Assembly: GCA_016188295.1 (NCBI GenBank)
Contig: JACPIA010000003.1
Coordinates: 30-64,029, forward strand
DNA from: Candidatus Vogelbacteria bacterium
Lineage (GTDB): Bacteria > Patescibacteriota > Minisyncoccia > Phycocordibacterales > XYD1-FULL-46-19
Length of the DNA: 64,000 nt
Direction: 5' to 3'
Position numbers and translations under genes: made by a program. Each line of letters starts with the position of its first letter. The stretch's first letter is position 1. This document shows positions 21,115-59,440 of this stretch, in pieces. The notes under the pieces were generated by a model. That model saw only the letters and a program-made list of their open reading frames with translations, was not told where the DNA came from and made no database searches.

Positions 21115-21125
21115 AGATCTAATTA

Positions 21126-21713
21126 TCAAGGCGTTGCCTTGATAATTAGATACCGAAAGCAGGTGACCTCATGATCATTAACTAAGCCAACCGCCTGCAT
21201 CAAGGCATAGCAGATAGTGGGGCCGACAAATTTAAAGCCACGTTTTAGCAAATCTCTACTCATCGCCACGGACTCTTTAGTGGTAATGGGGATGTCGGTT
21301 AAGGATTTAATTTTATGATTAATCGGCTTACCGCCGACAAACTGCCAAATGTACCGGTCAAAAGAGCCAAACTCCTTTTGCACCTTTAAAAAGGCTTGGG
21401 CGTTTTTGATAGTAGCAACAATTTTTAGACGATTGCGGATAATGCCGGGGTCGACCAAGAGCCGTTTAACGTCCTTGGCGTCATAAGAGGCTATTTTCTT
21501 TACATTAAAATTAGCAAAAGCTTTACGATAGATCTGACGCTTATTGAGCACTGTTTGCCAGGTAAGTCCAGCTTGTGCACCTTCTAAAATCAAAAATTCA
21601 AACAGCGTTCGGTCGTCGTGGACCGGTACGCCCCACTCCTTATCGTGATAGGCGACCATTAGTGGGTTGCTTCCGCACCACTGACAGCGATATAGCCCAG
21701 ATTTTTTAGCCAT
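21126..21713 (-). CDS. tag: DNA-3-methyladenine glycosylase I (Tag)
   Basis: RCQWCGSNPLMVAYHDKEWGVPVHDD zinc-binding N-terminus and an HhH-GPD-like fold, 195 aa. Confidence 0.85.
   Translation of the reverse strand: MAKKSGLYRCQWCGSNPLMVAYHDKEWGVPVHDDRTLFEFLILEGAQAGLTWQTVLNKRQIYRKAFANFNVKKIASYDAKDVKRLLVDPGIIRNRLKIVATIKNAQAFLKVQKEFGSFDRYIWQFVGGKPINHKIKSLTDIPITTKESVAMSRDLLKRGFKFVGPTICYALMQAVGLVNDHEVTCFRYLIIKATP
21128..21152. repeat. REP-like palindrome variant (atcaaggcgttgccttgat), overlaps the tag stop
   Basis: Core caaggc-N3-gccttg is shared with the REP family at 21730, 34596 and 35011. Confidence 0.4.
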
Positions 21714-21729
21714 TATTTTTTTAAATACC

Positions 21730-21756
21730 CACTGTCAAGGCGAGGCCTTGACAGTG
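21730..21756. repeat. REP-like palindromic element (cactgtcaaggc gag gccttgacagtg)
   Basis: 12-bp arms with a 3-nt spacer. Same family as the elements flanking the RAYT gene at 34.6-35.1 kb. Confidence 0.7.
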
Positions 21757-23399: not shown

Positions 23400-25040
23400 C
23401 TAGTAATCCATCTCGGGTACCCCATGTTTATGTTCCTCTTTTTTAGGTTCATCCACAATCGCCACCTCAGTCGTGAGGAGAATAGCCGCCGCGCTGGCCG
23501 CTCGCTCAAGACCGGTGCGTGTTACTTTAACCGGATCAATAATCCCGGCAACATACATATCAGCCACAATCTCATCAGCATTGGCATCATAACCCTCATT
23601 GCCCTTACCGATTTTAACTTTATCCACAATTACCGCACCATCATCTTTACCAGCGTTAATCGCAATTTGACGCAAGGGGGCATCGAGAGCTTTCAATAAA
23701 ATCTGGACACCAACCTCAAACTCGGCGGTCACATCATTAGATGGTGGGACAATTTTTTTACTGGCCACTTTAGCACCCGCTCTTACTAACGCCGTACCAC
23801 CACCGGGCACAATCCCCTCCGCCACCGCCGCTTTAGTCGCTTTGACTGCATCCTCAATTTTTAATTTTTTATACTTCATCTCCGACTCGGTCGAAGCACC
23901 GACTTTAATTACCGCCACACCGCCAGAGAGCTTGCTCAAACGCTCCACTAACTTTTCTTTATCGTAACTTGATTCGGTATTTTCAATCTGTCCGCGTAAT
24001 TGGGCAATCCGCTTATCTATCTCTCCTTTCTTCCCTTTACCACCCACAATCGTAGTTGAGTCTTTAGTGGCAATTATTTTACGGGCCCGGCCGAGCATTC
24101 CCACCTCCACATTCTCCAACTTTAATCCTAAACTTTCGGTCACCACTTGACCGCCAGTTAAAATAGCAATGTCCTCCAGCATCTCCTTACGCCGATCACC
24201 AAAACCCGGTGCTTTAATCGCTAGAGCACTAAAAGCACCGCGCAGTTTATTAACAATCAAAGTGGCCAAAGCCTCACCATCCACATCCTCGGCAATAATC
24301 ACCAATTCTTTTTTACCGGCCCCCGCCATCTTTTCCAACAACGGCAAAATCTCTTTGATGGATGAAATCTTTTTGTCGGTAATTAAAATGTGCGCATCAC
24401 CATACTCGGCCTCCATCCGCTCATTGTCGGTAATTAAGTAGGGCGAGGCATAACCTTTATCAAATTGCATCCCCTCCACAAACTCCGACTCGACGGCAAA
24501 AGTTTGCGACTCCTCCACTGTCACCACACCATCCTTACCCACCTGATCAATGGCCGCGGCAATAATCTCGCCAAACTCGGCTGACTCGGCGGAGATCGTC
24601 GCCACTTGGGTAATCTCTTGTTTATTTTTAATCGGCTTAGCCATCGCTTGTAGCGCTTTAACCACCTCGGCCGCCGCGGCCTCAATGCCCAGTTTTACCC
24701 CCATGGCATTTACGCCCAAAGTGGTCTTTTTAAAACCCTCCTCAATTAACGCTTGAGTTAAAACCACCGCGGTGGTGGTACCGTCACCGGCCACCTCATC
24801 TGTTTTACTAGCCACCTCTTTAATAATCTCGGCGCCCATGTTTTCGAGGCGATTAGTTAAGGTAATTTCTTTAGCAATGGAGACGCCGTCATTGGTGATC
24901 ATCGGCGTACCAAAGCTTTTGTCGAGGACCACATTGCGCCCCTTCGGACCGATAGTCACTCGCACGACACTAGCTACCGCGTCAATACCACGTTTTAAAC
25001 CCAATCGGGCCGCCTCATTAAAAATAATTTGTTTTGCCAT
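23400..25040 (-). CDS. groL: chaperonin GroEL (Cpn60)
   Basis: [23 protein letters not shown]...[17 protein letters not shown] and a Gly/Met-like C-terminus. Confidence 0.95.
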
Positions 25041-25058: not shown

Positions 25059-25361
25059 TTACTCGATAATCGCTAAAATATTCGACTCGCTGATGATCAA
25101 ATACTCCTGATCGCCCACCTTGACCTCGTCAGGACCATACTTAGAGAATAAAACTGTCTGGCCTTTTTTGACTTTAATTGGGACGAGCCGGCCATCATCA
25201 GCCACCTTGCCCTCGCCGACAGCGATCACCAAACCCTGTTCCGGTCGCTCTTTACTTGCCGTCTCGGGGATATACAAACCACTTTTGGTTTTAGAATCCT
25301 CTTTTGAGGGCGCCACCAGCACTTTATCGCCTAATGGCTTAATTTTGATAGTATTTTTCAT
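25059..25361 (-). CDS. groS: co-chaperonin GroES (Cpn10)
   Basis: IKPLGDKVLV...SGLYIPETA...GEGK pattern, 100 aa, directly upstream of groL. Confidence 0.9.
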   Translation of the reverse strand: MKNTIKIKPLGDKVLVAPSKEDSKTKSGLYIPETASKERPEQGLVIAVGEGKVADDGRLVPIKVKKGQTVLFSKYGPDEVKVGDQEYLIISESNILAIIE

Positions 25362-25398: not shown

Positions 25399-25435
25399 AA
25401 AATAAAATCCCCTGGATCAACAAGGATCCAGGAGA
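25396..25435 (-). terminator. rho-independent terminator for the upstream minus-strand gene
   Basis: Hairpin TCCCCTGGATCaacaaGGATCCAGGAGA followed on the minus strand by a T-run (plus strand AAAAAATAAAAT). Confidence 0.5.
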
Positions 25436-25461
25436 TGAAGGATTGAGAACTCTTAAACGAT

Positions 25462-26163
25462 TTACCGCTTGGACGCTCCAACCAGTCGCTTCTGATTTGC
25501 GACATGATTAGGGAGGACAACACGATGACAACAACAACCTTCGGTATTCAAGGTAACATCAATAGAAAAAGGACTAAGGCCATCAAAACCTAATATTGAC
25601 TGGCCGTCATCACGCAAAGATACACAGGCAGCGGAGAACTGATTGCCAGTTCTAAAAAAGAAGACCGTGTAATAATCCCTACTAAGCCAATCGCGATGAT
25701 CCAGACAAAACTGAATAATCTTATCCTCCGGAAGGACAAAATCATCTAATGTACCACCAGACAGACTCTCGATTATTTGTCTATAAGTGACATTTGGACG
25801 CATTTCCCGTACTGCGACTGCTATTGGCGGACTAGTGTCACGACAGGCACCAGTATTGAGTTCTGAGAAGACTGAATCGATGAAAGCAAACACGTCACGT
25901 GCTTCGGCTAGTGTTCGACTGCCATCTGTTTCGGCGATAATCAAGTTCTCACCACCGGGCAATCGTCGTAGGTATCTATCTTGATAGGCCTGACCGACAG
26001 CCAAAAATGCGACCCTGACCACTTCTCTACCCTTACCTGTCGTCAACCACTCTACAATGGCCGGACTGACACCAAGATCAGTCATGGTGTTGCGGAAGAG
26101 GACGACCAATTCTTGACACACTGCCGCCAGTTTGGTTAGCGCTTTCCAGTCTTCCATTTCCAA
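25462..26163 (-). CDS. hypothetical protein (paralog 1 of a tandem pair)
   Basis: 233 aa. Shares blocks with 26451-27131 (ETDGSRTLAEARDVFAFID vs PTDGTETLAKAKDLFVWID, YYTVFFFRTGNQFSAACVSLRDDG vs YATLFLFKQGEEFFIAYVDLDDDG, RVVLP). Confidence 0.55.
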   Translation of the reverse strand: MEMEDWKALTKLAAVCQELVVLFRNTMTDLGVSPAIVEWLTTGKGREVVRVAFLAVGQAYQDRYLRRLPGGENLIIAETDGSRTLAEARDVFAFIDSVFSELNTGACRDTSPPIAVAVREMRPNVTYRQIIESLSGGTLDDFVLPEDKIIQFCLDHRDWLSRDYYTVFFFRTGNQFSAACVSLRDDGQSILGFDGLSPFSIDVTLNTEGCCCHRVVLPNHVANQKRLVGASKR

Positions 26164-26450
26164 GGTCCTTTCTATGAGCTACAGCCACTCATCCCGCCAC
26201 TAGGCGCGACCCTAAGCCATAGCGTTTATCTACTACCAGTATACACTTAAAGCAAATTAAGTCAATGGTTTGTGGTAATGTGCACACACATTACCAAGTT
26301 GCCTCAACGCTGGCTTTGTAAATATGACGGGGTTTAGGATCATTGATTGAAAAGGCGTAATAGTAGTATACAAAAAAGTCTCTCAAATCCATAAGTATAA
26401 GGATGAGAGAGACTAAGGGTTGAGGAAGAACAAATTGAGAGTAAGAGAGA

Positions 26451-27131
26451 TTAAGCAGCCAGTTGTGGGAGGACAACGCGAGGCCGGTAGACCGCGTACC
26501 AGACACTGTCGTTCGAAAAACGGTAAACGTCCACCCGCAGCCCGCCGTCGTCGTCCAGGTCCACGTAGGCGATGAAGAATTCTTCTCCCTGTTTAAAGAG
26601 GAAGAGGGTAGCATATTCACTGGTACGTAACCACCCCCCATATTTCTGTACAAACTGCTTGATTTGGTGCTGGGTCAAACAGAGCTGATCCAAGTTACCA
26701 CCAACACTGTTAAAGAATTGGTTAAACCGACCGTTCTTGACTAACTCATGCACTTGGACCTTCGTGGCAGGAGTGGCCGTCGCTGGTAGACCCAAACCCC
26801 AACTGGTAAAGCAATCATCGATCCAAACAAACAGATCTTTGGCTTTGGCCAAGGTTTCGGTACCGTCAGTCGGGTCGAGAGTAATTTCCTCTTTGCCCGA
26901 AATGAGCTTGAGAAAACCATTGGCCTCGCGGTATTTGACCACAAACACTTCCGTTACCTCGGCCAGAACCTTGCGACCTTCGTCAGTGTTAGTCCAGTAG
27001 AGAATGTTTTCATCCATCCCAAGCTTTGCGAGCGTTTTGCCAATGACCACCAGCGACTCGCTCAACACCGCGCCAAACAAACCAAACAATTTTTCCATGA
27101 CCAGTCTCCTGGTTGTGCTTCTGTCCCTCAC
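26451..27131 (-). CDS. hypothetical protein (paralog 2 of a tandem pair)
   Basis: 226 aa, paralogous to 25462-26163. The probable true start is the internal MEKLFG. The P2 palindrome lies about 100 bp upstream. Confidence 0.55.
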   Translation of the reverse strand: MRDRSTTRRLVMEKLFGLFGAVLSESLVVIGKTLAKLGMDENILYWTNTDEGRKVLAEVTEVFVVKYREANGFLKLISGKEEITLDPTDGTETLAKAKDLFVWIDDCFTSWGLGLPATATPATKVQVHELVKNGRFNQFFNSVGGNLDQLCLTQHQIKQFVQKYGGWLRTSEYATLFLFKQGEEFFIAYVDLDDDGGLRVDVYRFSNDSVWYAVYRPRVVLPQLAA

Positions 27132-27227
27132 CCTGTCACATAACAGAGCCCCAGACAGTTGCTTTTTACCCTTATTTTCAAGGGTCTACTCTACCCTTTA
27201 CTATACACCTATTACCAATTTTAGTCA

Positions 27228-27269
27228 ATTATTCCAAAAAATACGCTATAGCGTGTAATTTGGAATAAT
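27228..27269. repeat. P2 palindromic element, copy 1 (ATTATTCCAAAAAATACGCTATAGCGTGTAATTTGGAATAAT)
   Basis: Outer arms ATTATTCCAAA/TTTGGAATAAT and inner palindrome ACGCTATAGCGT. The same family occurs at 58754 and 59398. Confidence 0.75.
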
Positions 27270-27299: not shown

Positions 27300-27857
27300 T
27301 TAAATGTAATCAAATTCTTGGAACACTTGTTTATAGAGCTCAATGGTAGCGCGCGCTTCGCGCTTGTTTAATTGATGATTAGGCTCGTGGGCAATTTGAT
27401 TCCGTACTTTATGCGCTTCCCAGGCTTGGTTAAGGGTAAGGAAGTCACTTGCCTCAATCGCCTTTAAGCGCTCGCCTAAATTCTCGCCCGGGTAATTCAT
27501 CCTCGCCACGAGTGCATCTAAAATAGTATCGGCTTCAATAATCGCCAGCTTCCAATCCGAGGGATTGTCCGAGTCAATAAATTTCATTACTCGCTCAAAC
27601 TGCTCGGTATAATCTTTAGAGGCCACCACTGGTTGAGTAATATTTTCAATAATCTTTTTCTTATTCAACTCAATTAATCGTAGCGAAATGTAAACAATAA
27701 GCGCGAGCCAGATCAGACCAATAGTTATTCCGATTACTTTAATTACCGGCAACCACACCAATACCGGCATCCCTAAATTACGCCAACCACCATTAAACAG
27801 TAATTGGTAAATTAAGTTAAAAAAATATTCAAAGTTAATGTAAACAGTCGATTGCAT
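27300..27857 (-). CDS. hypothetical membrane-anchored protein
   Basis: 185 aa with an N-terminal TM segment. No recognisable domain. Probably co-transcribed with gatCA. Confidence 0.45.
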   Translation of the reverse strand: MQSTVYINFEYFFNLIYQLLFNGGWRNLGMPVLVWLPVIKVIGITIGLIWLALIVYISLRLIELNKKKIIENITQPVVASKDYTEQFERVMKFIDSDNPSDWKLAIIEADTILDALVARMNYPGENLGERLKAIEASDFLTLNQAWEAHKVRNQIAHEPNHQLNKREARATIELYKQVFQEFDYI

Positions 27858-33239: not shown

Positions 33240-33814
33240 TGAAATCCGGGGATAACAGCGATTTGACCATTAATGGAAATCCTAATTTGCTTACAACGAT
33301 CTCCTCCACGTTTGCTTTTAATTTTGATCGTTAATGAGTCACCGGTGATATTAGAATTATTATGTAAAATCCTAGCCTCGGGATTGGGTCGGCGATAAGT
33401 AATATCAAAAACTCCAGTCAAATCATCACCACTTTGATCATAAAAATTAGTGATATCAGCTCCTTGTAGAGTATACTCCTCTACTATTTTATCTCCTTCA
33501 TCAAAAGTACCATCCTCCTTATTACTACCAATAAAACTGATAAATTTATTTGTATTATCACTATTAAAGTGAACCCCGTAAGACCTAGCGGCGGCAGGCC
33601 CGCTTGAACCCACTCTAGTACCAGTACCAAGCACTTGGGCGGTACGGATATTAACCGCCATCTCTTGAGCCATCAGTTCCAGCGCCGACTGGTCCTTAAA
33701 TTGCGGATAGTTGGCAACGATAATGCCAGTGATAATTAAAAAAATGACAATCACTACCAACATCTCCACCAAGGAGAAGCCACGATTTTGTTTAAATTTA
33801 AAAAGGGATAACAT
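33227..33814 (-). CDS. prepilin-type minor pilin
   Basis: N-terminal QNRGFSLVEMLVVIVIFLIITGII. Confidence 0.6.
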   Translation of the reverse strand: MLSLFKFKQNRGFSLVEMLVVIVIFLIITGIIVANYPQFKDQSALELMAQEMAVNIRTAQVLGTGTRVGSSGPAAARSYGVHFNSDNTNKFISFIGSNKEDGTFDEGDKIVEEYTLQGADITNFYDQSGDDLTGVFDITYRRPNPEARILHNNSNITGDSLTIKIKSKRGGDRCKQIRISINGQIAVIPGFQCQQ

Positions 33815-34595: not shown

Positions 34596-34620
34596 AATGT
34601 CAAGGCCTCGCCTTGACATT
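34596..34620. repeat. REP palindrome (aatgtcaaggc ctc gccttgacatt), overlaps the RAYT stop
   Basis: Inverted-orientation copy of the 21730 element. Confidence 0.75.
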
Positions 34621-34992
34621 GTCGATGGAACCAGTTTGTTGATATTTTTTATTAAAATACATGGAATATCCAGTCATCAACTTTTGCACAAAAATACTAA
34701 TACCCTGTTCCGATTTTTCTTTTACTAGCAAATGAAAATGATTAGGCATTAAACAATAAGCACCGATATCAACTAGGGTACTACCTCGGTCTAAATTAAA
34801 AACTTTTTTTAAATCAGTCTGCTCTTGTCGCCAATGATCACTTAAATGGATAACTTTTTTGGCATTGGTAGTGTAAAGTAAGAGGATAAATCGTAGATGA
34901 TCATTATCGTCCAAGAAAATCTCACGACGATTAGTACCACGAGTGTATAAGTGATAATACTCATCGGGACTGAATTCCAATTTACGAGCCAT
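34600..34992 (-). CDS. REP-associated tyrosine transposase (RAYT; IS200/IS605-like HuH Y1 transposase)
   Basis: HuH motif CLMPNHFHLLV and catalytic Tyr region TGYSMYFNKKY, 130 aa. Flanked on both sides by REP palindromes. Confidence 0.75.
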   Translation of the reverse strand: MARKLEFSPDEYYHLYTRGTNRREIFLDDNDHLRFILLLYTTNAKKVIHLSDHWRQEQTDLKKVFNLDRGSTLVDIGAYCLMPNHFHLLVKEKSEQGISIFVQKLMTGYSMYFNKKYQQTGSIDNVKARP

Positions 34993-35010: not shown

Positions 35011-35036
35011 CATGTCAAGGCCTCGCCTTGACAATG
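35011..35036. repeat. REP palindrome (catgtcaaggcctcgccttgacaatg)
   Basis: Same family. Confidence 0.7.
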
Positions 35037-35073: not shown

Positions 35074-35128
35074 AATGTCAAGGCCTCGCCTTGCCGAAGG
35101 CTACGCCTTGCCGAAGGCTACCTAATTA
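35074..35128. repeat. degenerate REP plus 17-bp tandem duplication (cgccttgccgaaggcta x2)
   Basis: aatgtcaaggcctcgccttgccgaaggctacgccttgccgaaggctacc. Confidence 0.6.
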
Positions 35129-43741: not shown

Positions 43742-43821
43742 GTTTATTTAAATTAACGATTATTAAGACTACTTTTTCTCCTGCCAGCCATTATACCCTA
43801 TGTAGCCCTAGAGAGCAATCT

Positions 43822-43925
43822 GCGGTGTATTCTTAAAATAGCTCGAACGGAATTCTGTTCTCGCCCGCCTGCGGCGGGCTCGGGTCGGGAGGGCAAAAAA
43901 TCCGTGCGGCTTTGCCGCAAAAATT
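43822..43925. repeat. GC-rich inverted repeat A-prime (inverted copy of 44839-44942, about 99% identity)
   Basis: gcggtgtattcttaaaatagctcgaacggaattctgttctcgcccgcctgcggcgggctcgggtcgggagggcaaaaaatccgtgcggctttgccgcaaaaatt. Confidence 0.85.
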
Positions 43926-43964
43926 AACAATTTCAAGTTTTTCTTTGGCGGCAATTTAAAAATT

Positions 43965-44729
43965 TTAGAGACAGGGAACTGAAGAAAAATCCTGGTGACC
44001 TCGATTAAGTTGGCATCGTTGAGTAACTGTCGCATTTCCTAGTGTCCAAACATTATTGTTGTAATACGCAGATGCAACTTTTTTCTGTGCACTAACAGAA
44101 TCGTCTCGCATTCCTTCGTATATTGCAGTTACAGCGTATTGACCATTGTTGTTTTGGACACTGACGGTAACTGATCCACAAGTGTCAGGCGTACAACCGC
44201 CCCAATTCCGCAATACAAGAGTCCGAGCTTGTTCCTGAGTAAAAGTGGGTGTAGCAGATGTGATTGTAAAGTAATTATCAGAAACATCTTCAAGTTCTTG
44301 ACCAACAGTGACCGCTAATTTGTATCGTCCTGCTGGAATATCTACTGGAATGGTAACTGTTTTTACGCCATTATTTGGAGCATCAGTCCAACTGCTAACT
44401 AAATCTCCGTTGTTCAAATGTTTTCCGTCAGCTGTGTCCAAATGAATCCAAATACCAGCGGTAGAGGCAACATTTTTGGTTTGCCATTTGATTGTTATTT
44501 GATTTCCAGTCGTGTATGTTTCCCCGCCGTTCGGGGAAAGTAGAGTAATCGAACCATTGGCAAATTGCAGACTACCATCTTTCCCTCCCGCGCCACCAGT
44601 TGTCTTAATGCCTGGCGTAGGCGACAGCTGTTGATTGGACTTCAACATAAAATATCCGGCTATCCCCAAAACAACAACGACTAACACAATGAGCGCTATG
44701 ATTATATTTGCAAAACCTTTTTGATTCAT
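43965..44729 (-). CDS. hypothetical exported/membrane-anchored protein
   Basis: 254 aa with an N-terminal TM (IIIALIVLVVVVLGIAGYF) and a Gly/Thr/Asn-rich extracellular region. Bracketed by inverted repeats A-prime and A. Confidence 0.55.
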   Translation of the reverse strand: MNQKGFANIIIALIVLVVVVLGIAGYFMLKSNQQLSPTPGIKTTGGAGGKDGSLQFANGSITLLSPNGGETYTTGNQITIKWQTKNVASTAGIWIHLDTADGKHLNNGDLVSSWTDAPNNGVKTVTIPVDIPAGRYKLAVTVGQELEDVSDNYFTITSATPTFTQEQARTLVLRNWGGCTPDTCGSVTVSVQNNNGQYAVTAIYEGMRDDSVSAQKKVASAYYNNNVWTLGNATVTQRCQLNRGHQDFSSVPCL

Positions 44730-44838
44730 ATTTATAAATTTATTAGTTAATAATTTTTATGACTTTATGAAAAAATTTCTTTTGCCCTTCCAAAATATGG
44801 TCCGAGCCGATTTGTTTTCAGGTTCTTTGGCAGCTTGG

Positions 44839-44942
44839 AATTTTTGCGGCAAAGCCGCACGGATTTTTTTCCCTCCCGACCCGAGCCCGCCGCAGGCGGG
44901 CGAGAACAGAATTCCGTTCGAGCTATTTTAAGAATACACCGC
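44839..44942. repeat. GC-rich inverted repeat A (central copy)
   Basis: Reverse complement of 43822-43925. Contains sub-hairpins tgcggcaaagccgca and gcccgccgcaggcgggc. Confidence 0.85.
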
Positions 44943-45043
44943 AATTCAGGATTTCGCAAGTGGAAAGATGATGCCGAGCGGCGCGAAACGCGCCGCTCGG
45001 CTAGAATTTGAAAGGGCTTTTCGGGCGAAAAGGAAAAGGATTT
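44939..45043. repeat. GC-rich inverted repeat B (central copy, contiguous with A)
   Basis: Reverse complement of 46462-46566. Contains the perfect hairpin gccgagcggcgcg aaa cgcgccgctcggc. Confidence 0.85.
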
Positions 45044-45093
45044 ATCAATGAAGGGCAAAAGAAAATTTTTATCAATTTTAATCAAACAAAAAC

Positions 45094-46617
45094 ATGAAAT
45101 ACATAATCTATGCGAGAAAATCTACCGAGAGCGAGGAACGACAAATCATGTCTATTGAATCCCAGCTTTCTGAATTAAAAGAATTTGCCGCCAAAGAAAA
45201 ACTTGAAATTGTTGCTTCGCTTTGCGAAGCCCAAACTGCCAAAGAACCTGGGCGAATTAAATTCGCTGAAATGTTGTCATTTCTGGAGAGTGGAAAAGCA
45301 GACGGAATTCTCTCTTGGAATCCAGATCGTCTCGCCCGAAATTCCATAGACGGAGGACAGATTATCTATATGCTGGACACAGGAAAAATTAAGGACTTAA
45401 AATTTCCGACTCATTGGTTTGAAAATACACCGCAAGGAAAATTTATGCTGAACATTGCATTTGGGCAAAGCAAATACTATGTAGATAATCTAAGTGAAAA
45501 TATCAAACGCGGACATAGAGCAAAATTAAGAAAAAGCATTTGGCCCGGCTTTGCCCCGCTTGGCTACACCAACAATCATAAAACGCGAGATATTGATGTT
45601 GACCACGAAAAAGCTCCGTTCATACGAAAGGGTTTTGAATTGTATGCGACTGGAAAATATACGCTAAAACAGATTGCAAAAATTCTCAAAGATTTAGGAT
45701 TGCGAAGCTACAAAGGAAATGTCCTTTCAGTTTCCTGTGTCCAGCGATTTTTGCAGAATCGATTTTACTACGGACTGTTTGAATTCAAGGGCGAGACGCA
45801 TCAAGGAACGCACGAGCCAGTTATCACGAAGAAACTTTTTGATAAATGTCAGGAAGTTATGAAGGATCGCGGACATATTAAAACGAGAAAAGCAGAGAAA
45901 ACTTTTCCATTTCGCGGATTACTCGCTTGCGGAGAATGTAGTTGCGCTATTACTGCCGAGACACAAAAAGGTCATAACTATTATCGTTGCACGAAAAAGA
46001 AAATCGCTTGTTCGCAAAAATATGTCCGCGAAGAATTACTAACGGAACAAGTAAAAAGTTTTCTTCAAAAAGTTTCTTTATCGAGCCAAGACACCGAAAA
46101 AGTTTTGCGTGAGCTGGACAAAGACGAGCAGAAAGCAAAAGCGAGTAGTTTCGTAATCGTTCAAAATCTGAAGAGTGAGTTATCCGACATCGGCACAAAA
46201 TTGAATAAATTACTTTCTGCGTATCTCGACGAGATAATTACTTCGGAAGAGTATGCCACGCAAAAACAAAAAATGCTCTCACTCAAAATAGAGTGTGCGG
46301 AAGAAATCAGGGAAATTGAAGATGGAATTGTGTCTTGGCTCGAACCGGCTCGTGCGTGGATTAAATCCTTAAATCAAGCAGAGAAACTGCTTTCCTCTGG
46401 GGATAAGTCGGAAATGACAACATTTCTAAAACAAAACGGCTCGAACCATATTTTGATCGATAAATCCTTTTCCTTTTCGCCCGAAAAGCCCTTTCAAATT
46501 CTAGCCGAGCGGCGCGTTTCGCGCCGCTCGGCATCATCTTTCCACTTGCGAAATCCTGAATTGCGGAAGGGGAGGGATTCGAACCCTCGAGAGACTTTTA
46601 CATCCCTACCTCGTTAG
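45094..46617 (+). CDS. large serine recombinase (resolvase/invertase N-domain plus recombinase domain plus zinc ribbon plus coiled-coil)
   Basis: N-terminal IIYARKSTESEERQIMSIESQ catalytic-Ser region, recombinase domain and zinc ribbon CGECSC...YYRCTKKKIAC, 507 aa. The last ~50 codons read through repeat B-prime into the tRNA-Ser flank. The true C-terminus is probably near 46460. Confidence 0.8.
   Translation: MKYIIYARKSTESEERQIMSIESQLSELKEFAAKEKLEIVASLCEAQTAKEPGRIKFAEMLSFLESGKADGILSWNPDRLARNSIDGGQIIYMLDTGKIKDLKFPTHWFENTPQGKFMLNIAFGQSKYYVDNLSENIKRGHRAKLRKSIWPGFAPLGYTNNHKTRDIDVDHEKAPFIRKGFELYATGKYTLKQIAKILKDLGLRSYKGNVLSVSCVQRFLQNRFYYGLFEFKGETHQGTHEPVITKKLFDKCQEVMKDRGHIKTRKAEKTFPFRGLLACGECSCAITAETQKGHNYYRCTKKKIACSQKYVREELLTEQVKSFLQKVSLSSQDTEKVLRELDKDEQKAKASSFVIVQNLKSELSDIGTKLNKLLSAYLDEIITSEEYATQKQKMLSLKIECAEEIREIEDGIVSWLEPARAWIKSLNQAEKLLSSGDKSEMTTFLKQNGSNHILIDKSFSFSPEKPFQILAERRVSRRSASSFHLRNPELRKGRDSNPRETFTSLPR
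46462..46566. repeat. GC-rich inverted repeat B-prime, abutting and overlapping by about 3 nt the 3-prime end of tRNA-Ser(GCT)
   Basis: aaatccttttccttttcgcccgaaaagccctttcaaattctagccgagcggcgcgtttcgcgccgctcggcatcatctttccacttgcgaaatcctgaattgcgg. Confidence 0.85.
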
Positions 46618-47424: not shown

Positions 47425-47469
47425 CAATTGTACCATCTTCCAGTGATCACGTTTACTTGGTACAATTGA
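47425..47469. repeat. P3 palindromic direct repeat, left copy (caATTGTACCAtcttccagtgatcacgtttactTGGTACAATtga)
   Basis: 10-bp perfect inverted arms AATTGTACCA/TGGTACAATT around a 22-nt core containing GTGATCAC. A second copy lies at 48070-48113. Confidence 0.8.
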
Positions 47470-47475
47470 TCTAAA

Positions 47476-48051
47476 ATGAAACATAAAACCAATAACATTA
47501 AAAGGGTTTATAGCCCCATGAAGCAAAAAATAATACTTTTACTTCACGCCGGCATTGCCTTATCCTTAACTCGTACCGCTAAAAAACAAATCTATCTTTT
47601 AAAAACCACACATCGAAAATGGCAAAAAATCGAAAAAAGAAAGCTTTATCGCTTAATTCGTGAATTTCACCATGAGCGACTAGTTGATTGGCGAGAGTAT
47701 AATGATGGTAGTATTAGCATCACCTTATCTCAAGCTGGCAAAAAACTAGCGCAAAAATTTGATTTTGATAATATGACTCTTCCGCAATCAGGACGATGGG
47801 ATAGGAAATGGCGAGTAGTGATGTACGATATTCCTCAACCAAAACAGGCTACTCGTGATGCTTTAAGGTCAAAATTAAAAGAATTAGGTTTTAAAGAATT
47901 CCAAAAATCCGTTTTCATTTACCCCTACTCTTGTTGCGATGAAATCAATTTTATTATTGAATTTTTTGATATTAGACCATATGTCACCTTTGGTGAGTTA
48001 GTTAATCCAACCAATGAAGCTTCATTAAAAATGAGTTTTGGTGTTAAATAA
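47476..48051 (+). CDS. wHTH plus Cas2-like (Cas2/VapD-fold) domain protein, paralog A (PaaX-like architecture)
   Basis: C-terminal RWRVVMYDIPQPKQATRDALRSKLKELGFKEFQKSVFIYPY matches the Cas2 core pattern (hhhYDh..kr..kv.k.L...G.r.Q.SVF). The N-terminal roughly 100 aa is a basic helix-rich domain. About 45% identical to 58811-59374. Confidence 0.55.
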   Translation: MKHKTNNIKRVYSPMKQKIILLLHAGIALSLTRTAKKQIYLLKTTHRKWQKIEKRKLYRLIREFHHERLVDWREYNDGSISITLSQAGKKLAQKFDFDNMTLPQSGRWDRKWRVVMYDIPQPKQATRDALRSKLKELGFKEFQKSVFIYPYSCCDEINFIIEFFDIRPYVTFGELVNPTNEASLKMSFGVK

Positions 48052-48069: not shown

Positions 48070-48113
48070 AATTGTACCATCTTCCAGTGATCACGTCTAC
48101 TTGGTACAAGTTG
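48070..48113. repeat. P3 palindromic direct repeat, right copy
   Basis: 41/44 identical to 47425-47469. Confidence 0.8.
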
Positions 48114-58753: not shown

Positions 58754-58797
58754 ATTATTCCTCCCAAAAATACGCTATCGCGTATTTTTTGGTATAA
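58754..58797. repeat. P2 palindromic element, copy 2 (overlaps the -35/-10 region of the downstream gene)
   Basis: ATTATTCCTCCCAAAAATACGCtatcGCGTATTTTTGGTATAAT with 12-bp arms CCAAAAATACGC/GCGTATTTTTGG. TATAAT at 58792-58797 sits 13 nt before ATG 58811. Confidence 0.8.
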
Positions 58798-58810
58798 TCA
58801 TATTTATATT

Positions 58811-59374
58811 ATGAGAAGTAAACCCAAGAACATCCATAGCCCTCTAAAACAGAAGGTGCTTACTCTCTTGCTGGCTGGTACCGCCTTGGGACTAACCCGA
58901 TCCTACAAAACCCAAAAGAGAATCTTAAAATCCATACCTAGAACCTTGAGGGATATTGACCGGGGCTATCTGTACCGTATTCTTGATGAATTTAATAACA
59001 ACCGATTAATTGACTGGAAAGAAAAAGCTGATGGTTCTATTTGTTTGATCATTACCGAAAAAGGCAAAGAAACCGCTCTTCAATTTAACCCTGATTTTCT
59101 TAAAATCAAACGACCGCCCATTTGGGATAAGCGTTGGCGAGTAGTTATTTATGACATCCCCGATAAGAAAAAGAGCGCCCGTGACGCCCTACGATACAAA
59201 TTAAAAGAGCTCGGTTTTAAAGAGTGGCAGAAATCTGTTTTTATCCATCCCTACCCTTGTCTCAATGAAATTAACTTTACTGTCGAATTTTTTGATGTCC
59301 GGCCTTATGTCCGTTATGCCGAACTAATCAATCCAACCAATGAAGCGGAGCTTAAACTACATTTCAAAATCTAG
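58811..59374 (+). CDS. wHTH plus Cas2-like domain protein, paralog B
   Basis: C-terminal RWRVVIYDIPDKKKSARDALRYKLKELGFKEWQKSVFIHPYPCLNE is the Cas2-like core. Paralog of 47476-48051. Bracketed by inverted P2 elements. Confidence 0.55.
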   Translation: MRSKPKNIHSPLKQKVLTLLLAGTALGLTRSYKTQKRILKSIPRTLRDIDRGYLYRILDEFNNNRLIDWKEKADGSICLIITEKGKETALQFNPDFLKIKRPPIWDKRWRVVIYDIPDKKKSARDALRYKLKELGFKEWQKSVFIHPYPCLNEINFTVEFFDVRPYVRYAELINPTNEAELKLHFKI

Positions 59375-59397
59375 TAAAGATAACTCTAATTTTTACT

Positions 59398-59440
59398 ATT
59401 ATTCCATTTTATACGCGATAGCGTATTTTTGGGAGGAATC
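59398..59440. repeat. P2 palindromic element, copy 3 (inverted relative to copy 2)
   Basis: Its reverse complement GATTCCTCCCAAAAATACGCTATCGCGTATAAAATGGAATAAT shares a 28-bp identical core with copy 2. Confidence 0.8.

Follow-up and report, generated by a model that had tools for sequence, protein, structure and literature searches.

The genes considered here lie in a 64-kb stretch of a Candidatus Vogelbacteria genome (contig JACPIA010000003.1 of assembly GCA_016188295.1), referred to below as the window; every window-wide negative result refers to those 64 kb. Two paralogous genes in it, designated gene A and gene B, are separated by a 287-bp spacer, and a 42-bp composite palindrome, P2, is located upstream of gene B. 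In the direction of transcription, with all of these genes on the minus strand, the order is ligA, gatC, gatA, a DUF4145-like gene (185 aa, 27300-27857), P2, gene B, the spacer, gene A, groES (25059-25361), groEL (23400-25040), lemA and htpX. The pair, which the original prediction had placed downstream of groESL, is therefore transcriptionally upstream of groES-groEL.

Gene B (26451..27098, minus strand; HYV76_00555) encodes a protein of 215 aa. Its start is most likely the ATG at 27098 rather than the GTG at 27131, because this ATG is preceded at 8 nt by AGGAG, agrees with the NCBI call (Candidatus Vogelbacteria) and is aligned with the start of a relative in another locus, L044. Gene A (25462..26157, minus strand) encodes 231 aa from the ATG at 26157, which is probably its start. 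Aligned over 184 aa, the two proteins show 33% identity (E=7e-31) and have the blocks TDGxxTLAxAxDxFxxID, YxTxFxFxxGxxFxxAxVxLxDDG and RVVLP in common, so that the claim of two intact paralogous open reading frames (ORFs) with these blocks was borne out. The raised GC content ascribed to both genes was seen in gene B only: its value of 0.503, against a window mean of 0.436, belongs to the top 1.3% of 650-nt windows, and most of the excess is contributed by its final ~125 nt (0.608, within the top 0.35%), whereas gene A, at 0.470, is close to groEL (0.481).

As the original prediction had it, the pair fits no recognised family: scans of Pfam, NCBIfam, PADLOC and PHROGs gave neither paralog a match at E<=1, the defence-system models of PADLOC-DB contributing 0 families for both proteins. 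Relatives were nevertheless numerous. A word-indexed search returned 12, every one from candidate phyla radiation (CPR) bacteria, and a profile search of 1.84 billion cluster representatives returned 2553 at E<=1e-3, with 900 of them at E<=1e-30. Genes A and B are members of a large CPR-specific family; scored with the family hidden Markov model (HMM), gene B is a typical member (254 bits) and gene A reaches 146 bits. The conserved unit of the family is a C-terminal domain of ~155 aa, preceded by a helical N-terminus that varies and present in two or three copies in some of the proteins; a Pfam scan of 10 longer family members found no domain. A hydrophobic N-terminal segment was present in only 9 of 126 members. 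Several candidate associations were tried and discarded. No family relatives were found in IMG/VR, and a phage origin was rejected; a conserved gene neighbourhood or operon partner was rejected as well, the contexts of family genes differing from locus to locus. A link to chaperone or protease genes had been suggested by groESL (in the window and in L044), HtrA-ClpB (L001) and Tig-ClpP (L004), and was dropped when, among 33 genome loci, only L011 was seen to have such neighbours.

Homologous loci connected the family to diversity-generating retroelements (DGRs). These elements comprise a reverse transcriptase (RT) gene, an avd gene and a template repeat (TR) matching the variable region (VR) of a target gene. 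In L004 a family gene is followed by a bAvd gene and then by an RVT_1 gene, and the final 117 nt of the family gene recur 447 nt downstream with 90% identity, the mismatches falling at adenines of the downstream copy. In addition to this locus, 33 genome loci were fetched and scanned with profiles. A DGR RT was found ~1.3 kb downstream of the family gene in 12 loci (11 of the 33, and L004), with avd on the opposite strand; L008, which has a TR and avd at a contig end, brings the DGR-type loci to 13. The RTs of the 11 genome loci are 57-62% identical to that of L004, and the one compared with Brt of the Bordetella phage, from L022, showed 31% identity (E=7e-44).

Fifteen VR/TR pairs could be aligned in these 13 loci, and 223 of their 230 mismatches were at TR adenines, mostly within AAC codons. 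The VR comprises the C-terminal ~40 codons of the family gene, and the TR translates into the C-terminal motif of the family, FVA-N-V-N-V-N-SDGL-N-V-N-V-N-RFE-N-D-N-VW-N-AE-N/Y-xHRVVVPQ. In an alignment of 126 proteins, entropy exceeded 3 bits exactly at the AAC positions of the TR and stayed below 1 bit at the residues between them. Two of the loci, L022 (5911-8990) and L027 (999-4078), have an identical TR and the same order of variable protein (VP) genes and machinery, VP1-TR-avd-RT-VP2. Outside the VR their VP1 and VP2 genes show no difference, and each of the four VRs has a sequence of its own, which is direct evidence of recent diversification in nature. (The two come from different metagenome-assembled genomes that are labelled "uncultured Gammaproteobacteria" and are CPR-like in content.) The family of genes A and B is hypermutated by DGRs, and both genes have full-length homology to proteins with a demonstrated C-terminal VR (P0008 and the VP1/VP2 genes of L008-L036). 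Hypermutation of this kind is classically the mark of adaptive ligand binding, whether the interaction is with a host, with phage or between cells.

The regions downstream of the VRs also have features in common. Each of the 15 active VRs (L004-L036) is followed, 40-110 nt downstream, by a long hairpin ending in ...GGGAT with a T-run, and after VP1 the next element beyond hairpin and T-run is the TGTATAAT box (TGTATAMT). Transcription of the TR RNA may be driven from this box, and the hairpin may correspond to the cruciform that serves in target recognition in the Bordetella phage DGR. The DGRs of the family match the CPR-restricted clade of published surveys, which was described as "DGR clade 2" by Roux et al. 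2021 (PMC8144416) and as the "CPR set" with architecture B3 by Wu et al. 2018 (PMC5758913), who left its VRs as unknown classes UVR1-6.

The variable-region equivalent of gene B was located at 26460..26576 on the minus strand (residues 175-213, 61% GC). Its residues at the template-AAC positions are Y178, D180, D182, R188, D190, Y192, N196, S198, Y201 and Y204; eight of these ten positions have NNC codons, TAC, GAC and AAC among them, and the scaffold residues are intact. It is this region with its NNC codons that causes the local GC peak in gene B. The region ends in CCACAACTG, which resembles the CCGCAACTG end of active VRs. In gene A, W200 and other scaffold residues are lost, ~8 codons are inserted, and the PQL-stop ending is replaced by a tail of 17 aa. 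The footprint of a VR, namely NNC/NNT codons within a conserved scaffold, is present in gene B and only partly in gene A. At the DNA level the VRs of the two genes are dissimilar, unlike those of VP1 and VP2 in L022 and L027, both of which match one TR.

The intact VR of gene B, the way it ends and the hairpin kept downstream of it would also suit a pair that is still an active set of targets, diversified in trans by a DGR outside the window after the loss of the local machinery only. Remote DGR targets are known (Wu et al. 2018, PMC5758913), and about 20 of the 33 family loci have no adjacent RT. We consider such activity improbable nonetheless. An adenine-tolerant degenerate search of the window with the last 150 nt of both genes, in which any VR base was accepted opposite a TR adenine, returned self-matches only, so that no TR-like sequence was seen in these 64 kb; a scan of JGI metagenomes for a VR/TR end of the gene B type, and with it the cognate TR, found nothing, the source genome probably being outside that collection. 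The dissimilarity of the two VRs and the scaffold residues lost from gene A likewise speak against continued diversification from a common template.

The spacer between the genes holds what appears to be left of the machinery. An HMM of 12 CPR RTs gave one match only among the 2384 six-frame segments of the window, and this match is in the spacer (E=1.1e-4); tblastn of the same stretch gave 60% identity at E=0.002. The RT-gene relic (26303..26365, minus strand) reads YYYAFSINDPKPRHIYKASV(E), 20 codons that correspond to positions 79-98 of the CPR RT profile. It represents the conserved RT motif xFxIxDPKPRxIxKA and aligns to residues ~62-82 of Brt. Downstream of gene B, at 26365..26414 on the minus strand, a post-VR hairpin (26377-26414) is followed by a T-run and TGTATACT, an arrangement that matches the hairpin, T-run and TGTATAAT found after VP1. 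When the 15 VR-downstream regions were compared, TTTTTTGTATACT after the gene B hairpin was seen to match the VP1-side element of the DGR loci. The element at 26365..26414 probably serves gene B as its terminator and includes what is left of a promoter on the TR side. For gene A the terminator is a hairpin formed by ATCTCCTGGATC and GATCCAGGGGAT, with a T-run (25407..25436, minus strand), and has ATCCAGGGGATTTT in common with the post-VR hairpins of DGR loci; the hairpins downstream of both genes resemble those after all 15 active VRs.

The RT-like stretch might instead be a chance match, the pair having arisen when a stand-alone family member was duplicated in tandem, with no DGR ever present between the copies. 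Tandem family pairs without an intervening RT do occur, in L028 and L034, and the stretch is short. Chance would, however, have to account for a sole RT-profile match that falls in 0.45% of the window (the share taken up by the 287-bp spacer) at the place where the RT sits in L022 and L027, for its agreement with the most conserved motif of the RT, and for the VP1-side element after the gene B hairpin, and we regard the duplication as very improbable. In our judgement it is quite likely that the pair is the remnant of a CPR-type DGR cassette of the order VP1, TR, avd (on the opposite strand), RT and VP2, from which TR, avd and RT have been lost. Gene B is the VP1-like homolog of DGR variable proteins, with its scaffold intact, and gene A the VP2-like paralog with a decayed variable region.

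Apart from the 20-codon fragment, tblastn and the RT profile found no ORF of an RT gene in the window. A tblastn search with CPR avd gave one chance match there, at 56.4 kb, which was rejected since it falls inside an unrelated gene of 391 aa. None of the components of a complete DGR cassette, that is an RT gene, a TR/VR pair and avd, was found in the window. The pair is not a new kind of system, being the remnant of a known kind of element. The co-regulated accessory module, plausibly of conflict or defence, that had been proposed for these genes was right in spirit, the family being hypermutated by DGRs; it did not hold in that the genes are separate units, the system is not an unknown one and PADLOC gave no match. 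The inverted repeats noticed earlier in the spacer were found again, as a perfect 10-bp repeat, TGGTAATGTG-N4-CACATTACCA, at 26273-26296, past the RT relic and directly ahead of the -35 box of gene A. This repeat occurs once in the window; it may be an operator or mark a deletion junction.

A sigma-70-like promoter and a hairpin with a T-run belong to each of the two genes, which are accordingly predicted to be separate monocistronic units, not an operon. The predicted sigma-70-type promoter of gene B (27200..27228, minus strand) consists of a -35 box TTGACT (27228-27223), a 17-nt spacer and a -10 box TATAGT (27205-27200); it matches the consensus at 10 of 12 positions, and both hexamers are conserved in L044. 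That of gene A (26238..26265, minus strand) has TTGACT, a 16-nt spacer and TATACT, and groES has its own perfect-consensus promoter. The transcript of gene B would begin with a structured 5' leader (27099..27199, minus strand; minimum free energy -36 kcal/mol, z=-4.9), whose last hairpin, ACCAG-GAGA-CUGGU, sequesters the Shine-Dalgarno sequence in the predicted fold. When this leader was compared with that of L044 (66-168), five base pairs were seen to be kept through changes on both sides, and the internal loops TGGGG and TGAGGGA were conserved. No known RNA family of Rfam was matched in the spacer or the leader. Translation of gene B may be controlled by the sequestering leader, which may be a thermometer- or riboswitch-like element beside heat-shock genes.

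P2 (27228..27269) is composed of outer arms ATTATTCCAAA and TTTGGAATAAT and a core, ATACGCTATAGCGTGT; it lies 31 nt past the stop codon of the upstream gene, and the -35 box of gene B overlaps its last base. The original prediction had described this palindrome as shared by the pair, and had noted related copies on both sides of a gene for a winged helix-turn-helix (wHTH)/Cas2-like protein at 58.8 kb. The copies were confirmed: they are at 58757-58798 and 59398-59439 and bracket a gene of 187 aa (58811-59374), and the 16-nt core of P2 has three matches in the window against 0.22 expected. P2 proved not to be shared by the pair: the predicted promoter that it abuts is that of gene B alone, and gene A is served by a promoter and a terminator of its own. 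The bracketed gene encodes a protein with a PaaX_M (Cas2-like) domain (PF20803, E=3e-20); the link of P2 to a Cas2-like partner is real, and that partner is a transcription regulator of the PaaX family, not a CRISPR or defence gene.

The expected co-occurrence in other genomes was also seen, P2-like 42-bp palindromes bracketing orthologous regulator genes on three other contigs (L041:2942-3605, L042:2950-3628 and L043:2948-3635; the unit in the window is 58757-59439). The sites of these units differ: murC is the neighbour in the window, in L041 the unit falls between ligA and gatC, and in L042 and L043 it follows infB. A third P2-like copy in L043 (4302-4341) is upstream of another gene. The upstream P2 copy always ends in TGGTATAAT, which is the extended -10 box of the regulator gene, and the central palindrome covaries on both flanks (ATACGCxATxGCGTAT, compared with the L042 core ACACGCCATGGCGTGT). 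A paralogous PaaX_M regulator at 47476-48051 has a different palindrome pair of its own, of 40 bp and in the same geometry; the copies of this palindrome, TTGTACCA...GTGATCAC...TGGTACAA, are at 47426-47465 and 48070-48109 and 98% identical. The second of them precedes a gene for a small membrane protein and one for a PilB-like ATPase. The P2-PaaX_M-P2 unit may be an autoregulatory module complete in itself, or else a small mobile cassette that has 42-bp inverted repeats at its termini.

As to the pair itself, P2 was found near the closest syntenic relative and in none of the 40 loci of more distant family members, so that the idea of finding it near orthologs held in the first case and failed in the second. 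As a companion of the family it was rejected on the latter ground; because none of the 40 loci has it, P2 counts as a regulatory addition specific to this lineage and does not belong to the module. The relative belongs to L044, where a P2-like element with the core TGCCATGGCA precedes a gene B relative, and where the -35 box, the -10 box and the leader are kept too. Both L044 and L045 have a single decayed family gene with a gene B-like N-terminus directly upstream of groES. The first ~75 residues of the L044 gene product (165-725, 186 aa) are ~70% identical to gene B; the remainder is a heavily diverged family domain with a deletion of ~35 residues and no recognisable VR. Judging by its sequence, the gene of L044 and L045 looks like a further stage of decay or repurposing.

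Abutting the -35 box of gene B and recurring at the same place in L044, P2 is probably bound, as its operator, by the PaaX-like regulator that the gene at 58811-59374 encodes, and gene B was most likely recruited into the regulon of this regulator in the present lineage. P2 may alternatively be no operator at all: a bidirectional terminator or an element of the repetitive extragenic palindromic (REP) type, or else the terminal inverted repeat of a small mobile PaaX-like cassette, the copy at gene B then being a solo remnant with no regulatory role. In favour of this view are the different genomic sites of the unit in related genomes (murC; ligA/gatC; infB), the position of the gene B copy shortly after the upstream stop codon, that of the 59398 copy between convergent genes, and a core capable of folding into a hairpin between A and T runs. 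We find this unlikely, however, as P2 was not called in the terminator scan, the extended -10 box of the regulator (TGGTATAAT) always comes from the upstream copy, and P2 is conserved along with the -35 and -10 boxes ahead of the gene B relative in L044. In addition, the separate palindrome pair of the 47476 paralog and the covariation of the core are both typical of co-evolution between a protein and its operator.

The history that we favour, loss of the machinery from a DGR cassette, can be outlined as follows. In active loci, the last ~40 codons of the domain are rewritten by mutagenic retrohoming from the AAC-rich TR, giving rise to ~10-11 hypervariable positions that alternate with conserved hydrophobic ones. 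In the simplest course of events, one deletion in the window's locus would have extended from just after the TGTATAMT box to about codon 78 of the RT gene, taking the TR, avd and the 5' part of that gene, and a second would have removed the rest of the RT gene, so that the 20-codon fragment survives along with the hairpins that follow the VRs and the TGTATAMT box. Of the two targets, gene B would be a frozen variant, with an intact scaffold, DGR-type NNC codons and a GC-rich variable region, and the variable region of gene A would have drifted. Each gene would now be transcribed on its own, from its own promoter to its own terminator, and gene B would probably be repressed by the PaaX-like regulator through the P2 copy abutting its promoter.

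Several points count against this account. The RT relic is only 20 codons long, and its E-values (1e-4 and 2e-3), though significant, fall short of being overwhelming. Among close relatives, none was seen to combine the same gatCA...groESL synteny with an intact DGR, and the deletions are consequently deduced from distant loci of 40-50% identity. Since ~60% of the family loci have no DGR RT next to the family gene, an ancestral pair that never had a DGR retains some small likelihood. The search covered 64 kb of the genome, and a DGR elsewhere could act on gene B in trans. Finally, the interaction of P2 with the regulator and the function of the leader are predictions.

An AlphaFold2 model of gene B, made with 126 sequences, had a mean predicted local distance difference test score (pLDDT) of 89, with 93-98 in the domain. 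The order of elements in the model is beta-beta, a long loop, beta, three helices and four strands, and the VR maps to a hairpin (173-181/187-193) and the segment 196-204. Because variable and conserved hydrophobic residues alternate along the two beta-strands of this hairpin, one of its faces is predicted to be the variable surface, and the binding face would be the exposed side of the hairpin with the loop that follows. The product is likely to be a ligand-binding protein that is mostly cytoplasmic. The remote-homology and structure comparison proposed earlier produced no neighbour in PDB, BFVD or the profile searches, the family-library scans being blank as well. Foldseek of two confident models against PDB and BFVD returned no match at E<=0.001 (best E 0.05-0.1, TM<=0.2), and no C-type lectin variable protein was among its top 50 matches; the PDB sequence-profile search gave chance matches only (E~0.6), and hhalign against Mtd a probability of 0.09%. 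The fold is uncharacterised; the beta-alpha-alpha-beta-beta-beta order of the model would be compatible with a very divergent variant of the C-type lectin, and the domain may be such a variant or a new scaffold.

A bolder proposal would be that the ~155-aa domain is an unrecognised DGR scaffold other than the C-type lectin, serving thousands of CPR lineages as a small binder, cytoplasmic for the most part, and carrying ~10 variable residues on the face of a beta-hairpin and the adjacent loop. We advance this tentatively, as a possibility that is somewhat doubtful. If it is true, gene B would be a natural DGR-evolved binder that became fixed once its DGR was lost and then passed to the control of a dedicated PaaX-like repressor and of a structured leader. 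A confident model with no neighbour in PDB suggests a scaffold worth solving, which could matter for CPR biology and for DGR-based protein engineering.

Two further sets of repeats were observed in the window. A serine recombinase gene of 507 aa (45094-46617) lies amid long, near-perfect inverted repeats at 43821-46566. One pair is of 105 nt and 99% identity (43821-43925/44839-44943), the other of 114 nt and 98% (44939-45052/46453-46566), and the arrangement suggests an invertible or mobile segment. A second palindrome family, of 25 nt (ATGTCAAGGCCTCGCCTTGACAT and variants), is intergenic and occurs at 21123-21147, 21732-21756, 33362-33386, 34597-34621, 35012-35036 and 35075-35099.

The reading of the pair as a DGR remnant makes two "hypothetical proteins" interpretable, and ~2500 protein clusters with no Pfam entry become annotatable as CPR DGR variable proteins. 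The locus would record the end of a DGR life cycle, in which the machinery is deleted, one target is frozen intact while the other decays, and a host regulator takes control. Its remaining interest is in an uncharacterised and possibly non-lectin scaffold, in a family that is apparently cytoplasmic, and in a documented case of DGR loss and domestication. Roux et al. 2021 (PMC8144416) asked whether the targets of CPR DGRs are genuinely non-membrane proteins, and the small share of family members with a hydrophobic N-terminus (9/126) makes this question testable.

Among known systems, the regulator of 187 aa resembles PaaX-family repressors in its PaaX_M (Cas2-like) domain and in the palindrome ahead of its gene, which overlaps its own promoter in the usual autoregulatory layout. 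It differs from them in being much shorter than PaaX of E. coli, in having no link to phenylacetate genes, and in the presence of the palindrome on both sides of the gene; the operator role would here be a prediction. The pair is closest to the DGRs of CPR/Patescibacteria (PMC8144416; PMC5758913), in which homologs of genes A and B are the targets, with a C-terminal VR, an AAC-codon TR, avd and a Brt-like RT. Like the CPR targets reported in those surveys (PMC8144416; PMC5758913), the targets here have no recognisable domain or transmembrane segment, and one of the loci with a DGR, L023, stems from the groundwater CPR dataset on which the surveys drew. Unlike these elements, the window's locus has no TR, avd or RT other than the 20-codon relic, and one of its target VRs has decayed. 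The structurally characterised DGR variable proteins, namely Mtd of the Bordetella phage, TvpA of Treponema, TaqVP of Thermus and the archaeal AvpA, all have the C-type lectin fold. With these the family has in common a C-terminal VR, variable positions that are AAC-coded in the TR and interleaved with a conserved scaffold, and presumed ligand binding. It differs from them in showing no similarity detectable by Foldseek, the PDB profile search or hhalign against Mtd, and in its variable residues, which in the model alternate along two beta-strands of a hairpin.

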